Sequence record: ON528741
From: Shigella phage ESh31
Reading direction: 5' to 3' (one strand)
DNA length: 64,000 nt
The position numbers were made by a program, and so were the translations under genes. Of this stretch, positions 3,656 to 37,726 are shown piece by piece. Numbering within the stretch: position 1 is the first letter of the stretch; every line of letters begins with the position of its first letter. The notes beneath the pieces are model-generated. The model saw nothing but the letters and a program-made list of their open reading frames with translations, was not told the origin of the DNA and ran no database searches.

Positions 3656-4063
3656 ATGAAACAGTTGATAATTAAAAGATTGAATTTATTGATATGTTGT
3701 TTATGCGTAGTAGTTGCATATGGTTATTATGCTATTAATGATTATATGCATTATAAAGATTATGATGTTACTGTAGTTAATACCTTTACAGGAACTCAAG
3801 GAAAGGGGTCTAGTTTATCGTTTATTGCCGTATATGAACTAAATGACGGTTATAGATTTAGCGAATATATTTCACCGGAGATGTATTCTTCAATAGAAAA
3901 AGGTGATAATATTACTGTAAGTTTACGTCCTTTCGACGTAAAACAGACATTGTTTGATAATATTGTTTGGTTCTTTGGAATGGTATTAGTTCAATCTGTG
4001 TGTGGTGCTTATATAGTCTTTTCCATCTTATTCTGTATATTTAGTAAAATTGAAATTGAGTGA
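3656..4063 (+). CDS. hypothetical membrane protein
   Basis: 135 aa; hydrophobic N- and C-terminal segments. Confidence 0.4.
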   Translation: MKQLIIKRLNLLICCLCVVVAYGYYAINDYMHYKDYDVTVVNTFTGTQGKGSSLSFIAVYELNDGYRFSEYISPEMYSSIEKGDNITVSLRPFDVKQTLFDNIVWFFGMVLVQSVCGAYIVFSILFCIFSKIEIE

Positions 4064-15898: not shown

Positions 15899-16456
15899 AT
15901 GTCAGAAACTAAGCCTAAATATAATTACGTAAACAATAAAGAGCTTTTACAAGCTATTATTGATTGGAAAACAGAATTAGCAAATAATAAAGACCCAAAT
16001 AAAGTAGTTCGTCAGAATGATACTATCGGATTAGCCATTATGCTTATTGCAGAAGGCTTATCTAAACGTTTCAACTTTTCAGGATACACCCAGTCTTGGA
16101 AACAAGAAATGATTGCAGATGGTATAGAAGCTTCTATTAAGGGGCTTCACAATTTTGATGAAACGAAATATAAAAACCCACATGCGTATATAACTCAAGC
16201 TTGTTTTAATGCATTCGTCCAGCGTATTAAAAAAGAACGTAAGGAAGTTGCAAAGAAATATAGTTACTTCGTTCACAATGTCTATGACAGCCGTGACGAC
16301 GATATGGTTGCGTTAGTAGATGAAACTTTTATTCAAGACATCTATGATAAAATGACGCATTACGAAGAATCAACCTATAGAACACCGGGGGCTGAAAAGA
16401 AAAGTGTTGTAGACGATTCTCCTAGTTTGGATTTTTTATATGAGGCTAACGATTAA
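15899..16456 (+). CDS. 55: late-transcription sigma factor gp55
   Basis: 185 aa from the ATG after AAGAGG RBS; matches T4 gp55 as I recall it ([23 protein letters not shown]...). Confidence 0.9.
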
Positions 16457-26150: not shown

Positions 26151-28847
26151 ATGAAAGAATTTTATATCTCTATCGAAACAGTCGGAAATAATATTGTTGA
26201 ACGTTATATTGATGAAAACGGAAAGGAACGTACTCGTGAAGTAGAATATCTTCCAACTATGTTTAGGCATTGTAAGGAAGAGTCAAAATACAAAGACATC
26301 TATGGTAAAAATTGTGCTCCTCAAAAATTTCCATCAATGAAAGATGCTCGAGATTGGATGAAACGAATGGAAGACATCGGTCTCGAAGCTCTCGGTATGA
26401 ACGATTTTAAACTCGCTTATATCAGTGATACATACGGTTCAGAAATTGTTTATGACCGAAAATTTGTTCGTGTAGCTAACTGTGACATTGAGGTTACTGG
26501 TGATAAATTTCCTGACCCAATGAAAGCTGAATATGAAATTGATGCTATCACTCATTACGATTCAATTGATGATCGTTTTTATGTTTTCGACCTTTTGAAT
26601 TCAATGTACGGTTCAGTATCAAAATGGGATGCAAAGTTAGCTGCTAAGCTTGACTGTGAAGGTGGTGATGAAGTTCCTCAAGAAATTCTTGACCGAGTAA
26701 TTTATATGCCATTCGACAATGAGCGTGATATGCTCATGGAATATATTAATCTTTGGGAACAGAAACGACCTGCTATTTTTACTGGTTGGAATATTGAGGG
26801 ATTTGACGTTCCGTATATCATGAATCGCGTTAAAATGGTTCTCGGTGAACGTAGTATGAAACGCTTCTCTCCAATCGGTCGAGTAAAATCTAAACTTATC
26901 CAAAATATGTACGGTAGCAAAGAAATTTATTCTATTGATGGCGTATCTATTCTTGATTATTTAGATTTGTATAAGAAATTCGCATTTACTAATTTGCCGT
27001 CATTTTCTTTGGAATCAGTTGCTCAGCATGAAACCAAAAAAGGTAAATTACCATACGACGGTCCTATTAATAAACTTCGTGAGACTAATCATCAACGATA
27101 CATTAGTTATAACATCATTGACGTAGAATCAGTTCAAGCAATTGATAAAATTCGCGGGTTTATCGATCTAGTTTTAAGTATGTCTTATTACGCTAAAATG
27201 CCTTTTTCTGGTGTAATGAGTCCTATTAAAACCTGGGATGCTATTATTTTTAACTCATTGAAAGGTGAACATAAGGTTATTCCTCAACAAGGTTCGCATG
27301 TTAAACAGAGTTTTCCGGGTGCATTTGTGTTTGAACCTAAACCAATTGCTCGTCGATATATTATGAGTTTTGACTTGACGTCTCTGTATCCGAGCATTAT
27401 TCGTCAGGTTAACATTAGTCCTGAGACTATTCGTGGTCAGTTTAAAGTTCATCCAATTCATGAATATATCGCAGGAACAGCTCCTAAACCGAGTGATGAA
27501 TATTCTTGTTCTCCGAATGGATGGATGTACGATAAGCATCAAGAAGGTATCATTCCAAAGGAAATCGCTAAAGTATTTTTCCAGCGTAAAGATTGGAAAA
27601 AGAAAATGTTCGCTGAAGAAATGAATGCCGAAGCTATTAAAAAGATTATTATGAAAGGCGCAGGGTCTTGTTCAACTAAACCTGAAGTTGAACGATATGT
27701 TAAGTTCAGTGATGATTTCTTAAATGAACTATCGAATTATACTGAATCTGTTCTCAATAGTTTGATTGAAGAATGTGAAAAAGCGGCTACACTTGCTAAT
27801 ACAAATCAGCTGAACCGTAAAATTCTTATTAACAGCCTTTACGGCGCTCTTGGTAATATTCATTTCCGCTACTATGATTTGCGAAATGCTACTGCTATTA
27901 CAATTTTTGGTCAAGTCGGTATTCAGTGGATTGCTCGTAAAATTAATGAGTATCTGAATAAAGTATGTGGAACTAATGGCGAAGATTTCATCGCAGCAGG
28001 TGATACTGATTCGGTATATGTTTGTGTAGATAAAGTTATTGAAAAAGTTGGTCTTGACCGATTCAAAGAGCAGAACGATTTAGTTGAATTCATGAATCAG
28101 TTCGGTAAGAAAAAGATGGAACCTATGATTGATGTTGCATATCGTGAGTTATGTGATTATATGAATAACCGCGAGCATCTGATGCATATGGACCGTGAAG
28201 CTATTTCTTGCCCTCCGCTTGGTTCAAAGGGTGTCGGTGGATTTTGGAAAGCGAAAAAACGTTATGCTCTGAACGTTTATGATATGGAAGATAAGCGATT
28301 TGCCGAACCGCATCTAAAAATTATGGGTATGGAAACTCAACAGAGTTCAACACCAAAAGCAGTACAAGAAGCTCTCGAAGAAAGTATTCGTCGTATTCTT
28401 CAGGAAGGTGAAGAGTCTGTCCAAGAATATTACAAGAACTTCGAGAAAGAATATCGTCAACTTGACTATAAAGTTATTGCTGAAGTAAAAACTGCGAACG
28501 ATATAGCGAAATATGATGATAAAGGTTGGCCAGGATTTAAATGTCCGTTCCATATTCGTGGTGTGCTAACTTATCGTCGAGCTGTTAGCGGTTTAGGTGT
28601 AGCTCCAATTTTGGATGGAAATAAAGTAATGGTTCTTCCATTGCGTGAAGGAAATCCATTTGGTGACAAATGCATTGCTTGGCCGTCGGGTACAGAACTT
28701 CCAAAAGAAATTCGTTCTGACGTACTGTCTTGGATTGACTACTCAACTTTGTTCCAAAAATCGTTTGTTAAACCGCTTGCAGGCATGTGTGAATCGGCTG
28801 GTATGGACTATGAAGAAAAAGCTTCGTTAGACTTCCTGTTTGGCTGA
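26151..28847 (+). CDS. 43: DNA polymerase gp43 (family B)
   Basis: 898 aa; exonuclease and polymerase motifs (YGDTDS); C-terminal clamp-binding tail SLDFLFG. Confidence 0.95.
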   Translation: MKEFYISIETVGNNIVERYIDENGKERTREVEYLPTMFRHCKEESKYKDIYGKNCAPQKFPSMKDARDWMKRMEDIGLEALGMNDFKLAYISDTYGSEIVYDRKFVRVANCDIEVTGDKFPDPMKAEYEIDAITHYDSIDDRFYVFDLLNSMYGSVSKWDAKLAAKLDCEGGDEVPQEILDRVIYMPFDNERDMLMEYINLWEQKRPAIFTGWNIEGFDVPYIMNRVKMVLGERSMKRFSPIGRVKSKLIQNMYGSKEIYSIDGVSILDYLDLYKKFAFTNLPSFSLESVAQHETKKGKLPYDGPINKLRETNHQRYISYNIIDVESVQAIDKIRGFIDLVLSMSYYAKMPFSGVMSPIKTWDAIIFNSLKGEHKVIPQQGSHVKQSFPGAFVFEPKPIARRYIMSFDLTSLYPSIIRQVNISPETIRGQFKVHPIHEYIAGTAPKPSDEYSCSPNGWMYDKHQEGIIPKEIAKVFFQRKDWKKKMFAEEMNAEAIKKIIMKGAGSCSTKPEVERYVKFSDDFLNELSNYTESVLNSLIEECEKAATLANTNQLNRKILINSLYGALGNIHFRYYDLRNATAITIFGQVGIQWIARKINEYLNKVCGTNGEDFIAAGDTDSVYVCVDKVIEKVGLDRFKEQNDLVEFMNQFGKKKMEPMIDVAYRELCDYMNNREHLMHMDREAISCPPLGSKGVGGFWKAKKRYALNVYDMEDKRFAEPHLKIMGMETQQSSTPKAVQEALEESIRRILQEGEESVQEYYKNFEKEYRQLDYKVIAEVKTANDIAKYDDKGWPGFKCPFHIRGVLTYRRAVSGLGVAPILDGNKVMVLPLREGNPFGDKCIAWPSGTELPKEIRSDVLSWIDYSTLFQKSFVKPLAGMCESAGMDYEEKASLDFLFG

Positions 28848-35237: not shown

Positions 35238-35531
35238 ATGAAAAAATTTATTTTTGCTACAATTTTTACTTTGGCTTCTTGTGCTGCTCAGCCTGCTATG
35301 GCAGGTTATGATAAAGATTTGTGTGAATGGTCTATGACTGCAGATCAGACTGAAGTTGAAACTCAAATTGAAGCGGATATTATGAATATCGTTGAGCGTG
35401 ATCGTCCTGAAATGAAAGCTGAAGTACAAAAACAGCTTAAGTCTGGTGGTGTAATGCAGTATAATTATGTTCTGTATTGCGATAAAAACTTTAATAACAA
35501 AAATATCGTAACCGAAATCACAGGTGAATAA
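35238..35531 (+). CDS. sp: periplasmic protein Spackle
   Basis: 97 aa with signal peptide MKKFIFATIFTLASCAAQPAMA; length and position match T4 sp (61.3). Confidence 0.7.
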   Translation: MKKFIFATIFTLASCAAQPAMAGYDKDLCEWSMTADQTEVETQIEADIMNIVERDRPEMKAEVQKQLKSGGVMQYNYVLYCDKNFNNKNIVTEITGE

Positions 35532-35532
35532 T

Positions 35533-36171
35533 ATGATTTATTATATGCACAAAAATCCACCGTTTAAATACGGTAAATTTCCTGATGCACAATGTTATAA
35601 TATAACGCCTGATGAAAATAACCGTGGATATCTTATTGGCACAATTTTTGTAATTGTTAAAGATAACGAAATCGTTGCCTGGGCAGATTTTAAAGGTACA
35701 ACACATGATGTTAATCCGGTGCCTTTCACATATTACAATATAATGGATTTGGCATATGATTATAATTGGTTTAATCATGACACGTTGGCTCATATTCATA
35801 TTGAAGGTGTAGGATTTGACATCTCTTATTCTAGCTACTCATTGTGTCCTATGAGTCGGGCTCATAAAGAACCTGAATATTTTTCATTTAGGAAACGTGT
35901 AAACTTTAAACGCAACACAGAGTATGTCGGTGGAATCTTTGTTAAAGATAATCGAATTATTCGTATTAATTATCCTTTGAGCGTTAGTCAAAAAGATATT
36001 GATGTTGATTTAGATTTCACTGAAAATAATATTAATCATATTGCTTCTGTGTATTTTGGTATCGATCACAAAATTGTAATATGTGGATATGAATTACCGT
36101 TTGAAGAACAGCCTAAAGTAAAAGTTTCTATTGACGATCAAATTTTTAATGCTTTTATGAATAAAGGTTAA
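35533..36171 (+). CDS. hypothetical protein (212 aa) with conserved C-terminal tail
   Basis: Ends in SIDDQIFNAFMNKG, shared with the next ORF. Confidence 0.45.
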   Translation: MIYYMHKNPPFKYGKFPDAQCYNITPDENNRGYLIGTIFVIVKDNEIVAWADFKGTTHDVNPVPFTYYNIMDLAYDYNWFNHDTLAHIHIEGVGFDISYSSYSLCPMSRAHKEPEYFSFRKRVNFKRNTEYVGGIFVKDNRIIRINYPLSVSQKDIDVDLDFTENNINHIASVYFGIDHKIVICGYELPFEEQPKVKVSIDDQIFNAFMNKG

Positions 36172-36172
36172 T

Positions 36173-36529
36173 ATGTATAGTTCTGAATTTTCATATTTAA
36201 AAATGGAAAAAATTTCATACGATTTTATAGATGAAAAGGTTTATTACAGTTTCCATGAACCACGTTTTAATAGTGAGGTTGGGTTTATTGTAGTAAAAGA
36301 CAATTTCATTTTAAAGATATATTCGGCATTAAAGGATTTTCACTACGAAAATATTAACCTAAAATTTAATAAAGAAAACGTTCGTAATTGCGCAGTAACA
36401 ATTACAGGAAATAAAGGTACATGTGTTATGCTATCCGATGAAATTAATGATTTGCTAAATGATGCAGAAAAAGTTGCTATTCCATCGATTGATGACCAAA
36501 TTTTTAATGCTTTTATGAATAGAGGTTAA
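36173..36529 (+). CDS. hypothetical protein (118 aa) with conserved C-terminal tail
   Basis: Ends in SIDDQIFNAFMNRG; the last ~45 nt are a near copy of the end of the preceding ORF. Confidence 0.45.
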   Translation: MYSSEFSYLKMEKISYDFIDEKVYYSFHEPRFNSEVGFIVVKDNFILKIYSALKDFHYENINLKFNKENVRNCAVTITGNKGTCVMLSDEINDLLNDAEKVAIPSIDDQIFNAFMNRG

Positions 36530-36530
36530 T

Positions 36531-36695
36531 ATGAAAACATATAAAGAATTTATTAAAGAAGATATGGTAGCTGGAGATTCAGGTGGTAATCCTGAAAATA
36601 TCTCTACTGGAACAACATCAGGTGCTGTAGTAAATAAAGGTCCTGAGCAGATTCCTAAAAAGAAAAAAGAGGAATCTAAAGAAAAAGAAGAGTAA
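36531..36695 (+). CDS. hypothetical small low-complexity protein (54 aa)
   Basis: Gly/Thr/Ser-rich then Lys/Glu-rich; below the track cutoff. Confidence 0.3.
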   Translation: MKTYKEFIKEDMVAGDSGGNPENISTGTTSGAVVNKGPEQIPKKKKEESKEKEE

Positions 36696-36697
36696 AA

Positions 36698-37726
36698 ATG
36701 TCATCAATACCTTGGATTGATAATGAGTTTGCATATCGTGCATTGGCTCATTTACCTAAATTCACACAAGTAAATAATAGTTCAACTTTTAAATTACGTT
36801 TTAGATGCCCTGTTTGTGGAGATTCAAAAACCGACCAGAATAAAGCCCGTGGATGGTATTATGGTGATAATAATGAAGGAAATATTCATTGTTATAACTG
36901 TAACTATCATGCACCAATCGGAATATATTTAAAGGAGTTTGAACCTGATTTATATCGTGAGTATATCTTTGAAATAAGAAAAGAAAAAGGTAAAAGTCGT
37001 CCAGTAGAAAAACCTAAAGAACTTCCTAAACAACTTGAGAAGAAAATAATTAAATCTCTTCCGTCATGTGTTAGATTAGATAAACTGGCGGAAGACCATC
37101 CAATTATAAAATATGTAAAAGCTCGTTGTATTCCAAAGGATAAATGGAAATATCTTTGGTTTACAACCGAATGGCCTAAATTAGTTAATAGCATAGCACC
37201 AGGAACATACAAAAAGGAAATTTCTGAGCCTCGTCTTGTTATTCCAATTTATAATGCTAATGGAAAAGCTGAGTCTTTTCAAGGACGTGCATTAAAGAAA
37301 GATGCTCCCCAAAAATATATCACCATCAAAGCTTATCCTGAAGCAACAAAAATCTATGGAGTCGAACGAGTTAAAGATGGTGATGTATATGTTCTAGAAG
37401 GACCTATAGATTCACTTTTTATTGAAAATGGTATAGCTATTACGGGTGGTCAATTAGACCTAGAAGTTGTTCCATTTAAAGATAGACGAGTGTGGGTTTT
37501 AGATAATGAACCTCGTCACCCTGACACTATCAAACGAATGACTAAATTAGTTGATGCAGGAGAAAGGGTTATGTTTTGGGATAAATCTCCCTGGAAATCA
37601 AAAGATGTCAATGATATGATTAGAAAGGAAGGTGCAACCCCTGAACAAATTATGGAATATATGAAAAATAATATTGCCCAGGGGTTGATGGCTAAAATGC
37701 GGCTATCTAAATATGCCAAGATTTAA
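36698..37726 (+). CDS. 61: DNA primase gp61
   Basis: 342 aa; N-terminal zinc ribbon CPVCGDS...CYNC; TOPRIM-like region. Confidence 0.9.
   Translation: MSSIPWIDNEFAYRALAHLPKFTQVNNSSTFKLRFRCPVCGDSKTDQNKARGWYYGDNNEGNIHCYNCNYHAPIGIYLKEFEPDLYREYIFEIRKEKGKSRPVEKPKELPKQLEKKIIKSLPSCVRLDKLAEDHPIIKYVKARCIPKDKWKYLWFTTEWPKLVNSIAPGTYKKEISEPRLVIPIYNANGKAESFQGRALKKDAPQKYITIKAYPEATKIYGVERVKDGDVYVLEGPIDSLFIENGIAITGGQLDLEVVPFKDRRVWVLDNEPRHPDTIKRMTKLVDAGERVMFWDKSPWKSKDVNDMIRKEGATPEQIMEYMKNNIAQGLMAKMRLSKYAKI

Follow-up and report, generated by a model that had tools for sequence, protein, structure and literature searches.

Why should two neighbouring phage genes end in the same peptide, written in almost the same DNA? 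The question is raised by the genome of Shigella phage ESh31 (sequence record ON528741), in which a stretch of 64,000 nucleotides (nt), here called the window, holds two adjacent open reading frames (ORFs) of 212 and 118 amino acids (aa) between spackle and gene 61. Each ORF closes with SIDDQIFNAFMN(K/R)G, after which come TAA, a single T and the next gene's ATG. A preliminary description of this DNA had reported the pair, its common tail and a shared stop, ribosome-binding and start junction, all of which are borne out by the ORFs and by a direct repeat of 49 nt. The explanation that accounts best for the whole, and which we hold with moderate confidence, is that the two genes are a tandem pair of the AdfA (anti-DarT factor A) family, that their tail would be a tethered interaction motif, and that the repeat would be both a by-product of the conserved peptide and a boundary for recombination.

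AdfA and its one-module relative

The 212-aa ORF is gp61.2, or AdfA. It matches the Pfam AdfA family (PF23813) with 451.9 bits over profile positions 1-211, against a gathering cut-off of 27 bits, and it occupies the position, after spackle, that gene 61.2 has in T4. For AdfA (T4 gp61.2), PMC11257639 cites the description of LeRoux et al. 2022; the factor was discovered via escape mutants of phage RB69, in which the change of Arg164 to His lets AdfA bind and neutralise DarT1, the ADP-ribosyltransferase toxin of the DarTG1 defence system (PMC11257639). T4 AdfA is the His form; the two-hybrid and plaque data behind the DarT1 effect cover the RB69 and T4 proteins, and deletion of adfA from T4 gave no phenotype (PMC11257639). 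The window AdfA reads NINHIAS where RB69-like AdfA reads NINRIAS, which places His169, inside a helix predicted at residues 164-175, at the equivalent of RB69 residue 164, so that this protein carries the His of the DarT1-neutralising allele. The 118-aa protein does not: the position that is decisive in AdfA, with its His or Arg, is taken there by Asn72, with Arg71 just before it.

The 118-aa protein, for which we use the name mini-AdfA, is, as judged from sequence and model comparisons, a one-module paralogue of the C-terminal half of AdfA. In BLASTP, the stretch 113-212 of AdfA aligned with 21-118 of the shorter protein at 37% identity (E 4e-11), and the shorter protein scored 34.4 bits against the Pfam AdfA model, above its gathering score, over profile positions 113-211. 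These matches do not bear out the earlier view that the remainder of the two proteins looks unrelated, an impression that arose because the similarity of the bodies without the tail is weak. Much of the Pfam score indeed stems from the tail, and two results weigh against the paralogy: with the tails removed, BLASTP of the AdfA C-terminal half against mini-AdfA gave no match, and the profile-profile comparison by hhalign gave a weak one over 47 columns (P 3.6e-5, probability 71%).

AlphaFold models supplied a second line of comparison. Mini-AdfA was modelled with a mean predicted local distance difference test score (pLDDT) of 82.5, exceeding 90 for residues 11-90, and its core is predicted to run from five antiparallel strands through a helix and a short strand to a second helix, after which come a linker and the tail. 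AdfA, in a model of lower confidence (mean pLDDT 65.5), is predicted as two tandem modules (residues 2-79 and 102-175), each a five-strand beta-meander with a helix, and a linker and the tail come after the second; the predicted topology is common to both AdfA halves and mini-AdfA. When the mini-AdfA model, tail included, was searched with Foldseek against BFVD, the significant matches (E <= 0.001) were family members only, namely a 118-aa homologue, a 157-aa protein of Yersinia phage fPS-65, a 212-aa AdfA (E 5.9e-5) and a 145-aa member (E 2e-4).

The two-module architecture of about 210 aa is thus found in the 212-aa ORF, whereas the 118-aa ORF has a single module, and we classed it for this reason as a short paralogue and not as an AdfA orthologue. 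It belongs to phrog_4122 (E 1.4e-72), carries no annotation beyond hypothetical ('RB32ORF033c') and is present in 333 phage records. Ratios of nonsynonymous to synonymous substitution rates (dN/dS) of 0.03-0.30 among its orthologues indicate that it is a real gene. Phage T2, which carries only the 118-aa gene, has been treated as being without an adfA homologue (PMC11257639).

The genes of the region form a tightly packed unit on the plus strand, in the order helicase 41, dmd, 61.4, sp, the 212-aa ORF, the 118-aa ORF, 61.1 and primase 61, with the following features.

35238..35531, plus strand: sp (spackle), the conserved left-hand neighbour (Pfam T4_Spackle, E 5.8e-45)
35533..36171, plus strand: adfA (gene 61.2, anti-DarT factor A), 212 aa (Pfam PF23813, E 3.2e-136, full length)
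36037..36039, plus strand: codon CAT for His169 of AdfA, equivalent to residue 164 of RB69 AdfA (alignment with RB69-like AdfA)
36127..36175, plus strand: repeat copy 1, the last 14 adfA codons (SIDDQIFNAFMNKG), TAA, T and the ATG that starts the 118-aa gene (direct-repeat search; codon table)
36173..36529, plus strand: mini-adfA (RB32ORF033c type, phrog_4122), 118 aa (BLASTP, Pfam, phrog_4122)
36485..36533, plus strand: repeat copy 2, the last 14 mini-adfA codons (SIDDQIFNAFMNRG), TAA, T and the ATG of gene 61.1 (direct-repeat search)
36531..36695, plus strand: gene 61.1, which encodes 54 aa and flanks the pair on the right in Tequatrovirus (phrog_1823, E 7e-34; T4 annotation)
36698-37726, plus strand: primase gene 61, 3' of 61.1 (T4 annotation)

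The window belongs to a T-even (Tequatrovirus) genome whose nearest relatives, with 97-99% identity across the adfA region, are RB51, RB68, AR1 and wV7. In this region a promoter scan stayed at chance level and no terminators were found.

The adfA gene itself shows some variation. A 6-nt tandem duplication at 35791-35802 (CATATT CATATT) encodes His-Ile-His-Ile and accounts for the 212 aa of this AdfA against 210 aa in relatives of the RB51/RB68 type. An identical 212-aa AdfA occurs in phage BECP11, and a match in R5505 covers the same 1599 nt as the query. The alleles are mosaic (35533-36126 compared with P0017, P0020 and L028-L030): two N-terminal types, the window/RB69-like and the T4-like, are about 61% identical and are each paired with either C-terminal type among different phages, which points to recombination within adfA.

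A near-invariant tail on diverging bodies

How far the tail extends beyond this pair was established by a profile search of 5.8 billion proteins, which returned 71 proteins, and by an exhaustive hidden Markov model search of 1.84 billion cluster representatives, whose 11 matches sort into seven subfamilies; a pattern scan of IMG/VR added 13 loci, which serve diversity and not frequencies. The search for the QIFNAFMN tail that the preliminary description had proposed gave a clear outcome, since the tail is found twice in the window and in every one of the seven subfamilies, and the possibility that it might be absent from orthologues did not materialise. The subfamilies, all of which end in the tail, are as follows.

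AdfA, 208-216 aa
Mini-AdfA, 118 aa
A relative of 116-122 aa, in Gaprivervirus
A 120-aa form, in metagenome contigs
A 125-aa form, in metagenome contigs
A form of 144-148 aa, in Dhaka- and Gaprivervirus (phrog_8539)
A form of 143-144 aa

Each subfamily sits directly after sp in T-even phages, and sp is the same neighbour in T4, T2, SP18, MN01, IME341 and the metagenome contigs, all family members found beginning at or directly after its stop codon. As in the window, the family genes of these genomes lie ahead of primase gene 61. Gaprivervirus SP18 and MN01 carry two tail-bearing genes in tandem, the 146-aa form and then the mini form.

The tail stands out from bodies that have diverged widely. 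In an alignment of 36 sequences the only invariant columns were Q109, I110, F111 and F114, all of them in the tail, and the mean identity between subfamily representatives was 22% for the bodies and 87% for the tail, with a linker of 12-37 residues between core and tail. Across lineages and genera, seven of the eight degenerate codons of DDQIFNAFM show synonymous variants, and its amino acids changed only from N to K once and from M to L in a copy split into two ORFs, a pseudogene. A peptide that stays fixed while its silent sites drift indicates purifying selection on the peptide and not recently copied DNA. On this codon pattern, the tail is under purifying selection and is a near-invariant signature of a fast-diverging family.

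A scan of 185,579 species genomes from bacteria and archaea found DDQIFNAFM encoded in none of them, and the string QIFNAF did not occur in the literature searched. The shorter pattern DQIFNAF gave at least 120 scattered matches in bacteria, about the number estimated by chance in 596 gigabases, and these were disregarded. In L023 (Logan contig SRR21291449_79271, 3937-4294), 3' of a 144-aa member, a mini-type gene is split into ORFs of 63 and 68 aa, its tail has drifted to FNAFLKRGE, and it looks like a decaying copy; in L027, the stop codon of the 125-aa member is the site of a tandem duplication of 9 nt (AGAGGCTAA AGAGGCTAA, around 3870-3890).

The conserved stretch could instead be a nucleotide signal, such as a translational coupling or ribosome-binding element or an RNA structure serving the downstream gene. 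In every context the last 13 nt or so ([AC]GAGGTTAATATG) hold a GAGG Shine-Dalgarno sequence, the stop and the next start: the terminal codons [AC]GA GGT together with TAA-T-ATG form the ribosome-binding site and start of a gene that varies between genera. In the window, the closing codons AAA GGT of repeat copy 1 also act as the Shine-Dalgarno of the 118-aa gene, and in copy 2 the GAGG of gene 61.1 comes from AGA GGT. The upstream copy in tandem pairs, moreover, often has a weakened Shine-Dalgarno. This account, however, covers the final two codons only, as the 36 nt upstream vary at silent sites while their peptide is fixed; the folding of either junction does not surpass that of shuffles (z-scores of 0.36 and 0.27), and Rfam gave no relevant match at E <= 1, so that RNA, be it an element or a structure, was set aside as an explanation of the repeat. 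We consider a nucleotide signal highly improbable as the cause of the conservation; the last two codons, with the stop and ATG, would additionally serve the gene that follows as its ribosome-binding and start junction.

The weakening has a pattern of its own. In seven of eight tandem pairs, from two genera, the upstream gene ends in AAA GGT or in AGA/CGA GAT instead of [AC]GA GGT (window 36163-36171; L015, L016, L018-L021), which makes for a weaker GAGG ribosome-binding site before the downstream mini gene, and GAGG is always kept where an unrelated gene comes after the family gene. The weakened site may tune expression of the mini gene. The choice of K or R in the tail was rejected as a marker of gene architecture, for two-gene genomes show NRG, NKG and NRD in the upstream copy.

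As for what the peptide does, AlphaFold predicts it as a helix (residues 106-115 of mini-AdfA and 200-209 of AdfA). In mini-AdfA the linker has a pLDDT below 50 and the tail helix one of about 50-56, against more than 90 for the core, and AdfA gives the same pattern. Because the tail is invariant, hangs on a linker of variable length, ends bodies that diverge fast and is not confidently packed on the core, we infer from sequence and models that it is a tethered interaction motif rather than an element of the core. It would be a short helix on a flexible linker that contacts something common to all family members, most likely a conserved surface of the ADP-ribosyltransferase toxin, which would resemble the way in which classical antitoxins bind their toxins through C-terminal segments, or alternatively a conserved third-party protein. 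It would fall to the variable body, together with its residue corresponding to RB69 164, to determine the variant of the toxin that is recognised. The C-terminal docking peptide put forward in the preliminary description is thus plausible in its function, given the near-invariance, the purifying selection, the variable linker and the low-confidence helix, but it is the signature of one homologous family and not a device shared by unrelated proteins.

The main rival to a tethered motif is a structural or oligomerisation role, in which the tail would be an intramolecular or self-association element, its helix packing on the sheet of the module or being swapped between subunits of homo- or hetero-oligomers, and would be conserved for folding. 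Such a role would fit a tail that always comes with the same module type and never on an unrelated body, that is predicted as a helix, and whose invariant I, F and F and nearly invariant M stand at i, i+1, i+4 and i+5, as for a packing face; two paralogues with the same tail in one phage would permit hetero-oligomers. Yet AlphaFold does not seat the helix confidently on a core that itself exceeds 90 pLDDT, the linker ranges over 12-37 residues, and a packing helix should co-vary with bodies that are 22% identical, whereas this one is invariant. In addition, the N-terminal module of AdfA has the same predicted topology without a tail of its own, albeit in the lower-confidence model. We regard the structural role as a serious contender that is nonetheless unlikely to be the correct one.

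Several points weigh against the tethered motif as well. The low pLDDT of the tail is weak evidence, because an invariant segment yields no covariation signal, and the helical hydrophobic moment of the tail is ordinary, being exceeded by 29% of shuffles. In two-hybrid assays, RB69 AdfA with Arg164 did not bind DarT1 although its tail is present, and AdfA with His164 bound DarT1 even as an AdfA-T18 fusion, in which the C-terminus is blocked (PMC11257639); these data mean that the tail is insufficient alone for DarT1 binding and that a free C-terminus is unnecessary. Structural databases offered no precedent: sequence searches of the PDB with AdfA, the family profile and the tail peptide gave no significant match, and none of the solved structures resembles the AdfA family. 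A match to a dCMP deaminase over the hairpin 'VGGIFVKDNRII' (E 0.46) was rejected as chance.

Classical type II antitoxins such as Phd, CcdA and MazE consist of a folded domain and a C-terminal segment that is flexible and takes up its fold on the toxin. The AdfA family has a comparable predicted layout, with a structured body, a flexible linker and a short C-terminal helix, and its putative mode of action is comparable too, the toxin being neutralised by direct binding, as AdfA(R164H) binds DarT1 in the two-hybrid assay (PMC11257639). The family differs in that its genes are orphan phage genes unpaired with a toxin gene, in that a DNA-binding domain is absent and solved antitoxins match it in neither sequence nor fold, and in that the specificity determinant published for AdfA, residue 164, is part of the body instead of the tail.

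A second comparison concerns the C-terminal tails of T4 gp43 and gp55 (SLDFLF/Y), which are known to bind the sliding clamp gp45. In the window, gp43 (26151-28847) ends in KASLDFLFG, and gp55, the late sigma factor, is encoded at 15899-16456. The AdfA tail is likewise acidic, aromatic and C-terminal, begins with S-[IL]-D and belongs to the same phage, and DarT acts on DNA under replication. The likeness is loose, however, as the LDFL core is absent from the AdfA tail PSIDDQIFNAFMNRG: in place of S-L-D-F-L-[FY] it reads S-I-D-D-Q-I-F-N-A-F. A clamp-binding reading is not upheld by the motif and would be a possible lead at best. A reading of the tail as a mimic of the SSB tip was discarded too, the defining motif being unmatched.

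The direct repeat and the gain and loss of one unit

At the DNA level, the two gene ends form a direct repeat of 49 nt (36127-36175 and 36485-36533), identical at 45 of 49 positions and spaced by 358 nt. Of the 45 nt that begin with the Ser codon and include the stop, for which three differences had first been reported, four differ (TCT/TCG, GAC/GAT, GAT/GAC and AAA/AGA), the number falling to three only if the Ser codon is left out. Back-translated QIFNAFMN occurs exactly twice in the window, against an average of 0.01 in shuffles, and this two-fold occurrence is far beyond chance.

That a recent gene conversion or a cassette exchange with its crossover at the tail copied the shared sequence, so that the peptide would have no particular function, would be an alternative to selection. 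In other genomes the tails do lie closer together. The tails of paralogues in one genome differ at 0-3 of 36 nt, those of orthologues between genera at 3-5; in phage APTC-EC-2A (L017), 12 of 13 codons of the tail pair match (P about 0.002), where codon bias for the same peptide leads one to expect 6.9 of 13; and both Gaprivervirus paralogues share FMKR (AAG CGA) where orthologues elsewhere have FMNR. Clean one-unit insertions and deletions (indels) also exist, and T4 recombines at short homologies. Nevertheless, the peptide core is invariant in seven subfamilies from Tequatro-, Mosig-, Dhaka- and Gaprivervirus and unclassified contigs, most codons show synonymous differences, and the downstream genes differ between lineages, which leaves no common right flank. 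Conversion cannot hold amino acids constant as silent sites drift, a pattern that selection on the peptide alone can produce. A chiefly DNA-level origin of the shared tail is, in our judgement, improbable. The same data, from a small sample, suggest that the tails are partly homogenised, either through gene conversion or through crossing-over within the tail.

With selection on the peptide as the preferred explanation, the repeat would follow chiefly from the conserved peptide, from codon bias and from the junction. It could also, with copies 45-48 of 49 nt identical and 358 nt apart, serve T-even phages as a substrate in their efficient recombination at short homologies, and it bounds a natural one-unit insertion or deletion that separates adfA from adfA plus mini-adfA, the tails being apparently homogenised within genomes.

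Natural genomes show the gene content that such events would leave. In the phage collection, adfA together with mini-adfA was found by a junction query in about 157 records, mini-adfA alone (T2 type) in about 128, and adfA alone (T4 type, including RB69-like phages) in about 329. Counts from a junction-specific megablast (233 T4-type and 189 T2-type records) were discarded as inflated, because both halves are joined in genomes that carry both genes. Variants lacking the gene at 36173-36529, which the preliminary description had suggested looking for, do occur. Compared with L017 and L019, which have both genes and the same adfA allele, T4 shows a clean gap of 358 base pairs (bp) with its ends within the repeat, and the metagenome contigs L028-30, whose adfA is 98-99% identical to that of the window, have the same 358-bp gap and a single tail, so that T4 and these contigs lack exactly one unit. 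The single tail of L028-30 begins with the first marker of copy 1 and then matches copy 2 at 46 of 46 positions (window 36488-36533, ATT through ATG), and that of T4 differs from copy 2 only at the Ser codon (TCT for TCG).

T2 lacks adfA instead. Its mini gene lies directly after sp and is preceded by TAGAGGTTAGTATG (L001, 2489-2503), equal to 13 of 14 nt of the end of the adfA tail, a remnant by which the T2 form is probably traced, through loss of adfA, to an ancestor with both genes. An apparent tandem copy of the mini gene with a 33-aa fragment in Yersinia phage phiD1 (L016, HE956711, 2486-2680), which if genuine would have attested unequal crossing-over directly, was rejected as an assembly artefact, because the junction is rich in N and reads as Illumina adapter (GATCGGNNGANC...TGAACTNNAG).

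T4 deletes and amplifies DNA between homologies of 6-10 bp in this same region (Srikant, Guegler and Laub, eLife 2022; bioRxiv 10.1101/2022.04.14.488369), which makes a 49-nt repeat a credible substrate. The 'anti-toxin island' dmd-tifA-adfA of T4, in which direct-repeat recombination adds or removes a unit and leaves one repeat copy (bioRxiv 10.1101/2022.04.14.488369), lies in the same neighbourhood. Those events were observed in the laboratory at homologies of 6-10 bp, whereas here they are deduced from natural genomes, and the repeat of 49 nt lies within coding sequence, where selection on the peptide would keep it.

Two observations tell against the repeat as the agent. In the window tail pair, nine of 12 codons match (P about 0.15), a value within the expectation from codon bias, so that the peptide and the shared junction suffice to explain this repeat. 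L028-30, moreover, are mosaic, their last 40 nt or so before the tail being T4-like, and ordinary recombination in the flanks, in place of a crossover in the repeat, could spread the indel. As to the precise deletion or exchange originally proposed for the repeat, then, the natural variants without one 358-bp unit fit it, but the direction, frequency and mechanism of the indel are what we infer from natural genomes.

Consequences for the AdfA family

A wider reading, which we put forward tentatively and regard as possible if doubtful, would make the slot after spackle a diversity-generating cassette site for toxin inhibitors that combine a variable recognition body with an invariant effector tail. 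The tail would plug a conserved site of ADP-ribosyltransferases (DarT variants and possibly CmdT) or recruit one host or phage protein, and it would also be the right-hand crossover point in the DNA; mini-AdfA would be an independent second inhibitor with another target. If this is true, the crossover point in the tail would let bodies be stacked, swapped or deleted as units, and a second inhibitor could help to explain why T4 shows no phenotype when adfA is deleted and why phages said to 'lack adfA' may be covered all the same.

AdfA itself is already known, and the 118-aa gene, annotated as hypothetical, is matched by the Pfam AdfA model. The available AdfA literature contains no description of the one-module paralogue, the 145-aa form or other relatives as members of the AdfA family, nor of the invariant tail or the one-unit indel. 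For the mechanism of AdfA, the invariant segment of 9-14 residues is a defined mutational target, and the half-size and 145-aa relatives mean that there are more candidate inhibitors than has been assumed. Correlations between the presence of adfA and sensitivity to DarTG should be redone with the whole family, as T2 has the 118-aa paralogue. Finally, the selected peptide creates the 49-nt repeat, and the one-unit differences between genomes suggest a route by which T-even phages gain and lose counter-defence genes.

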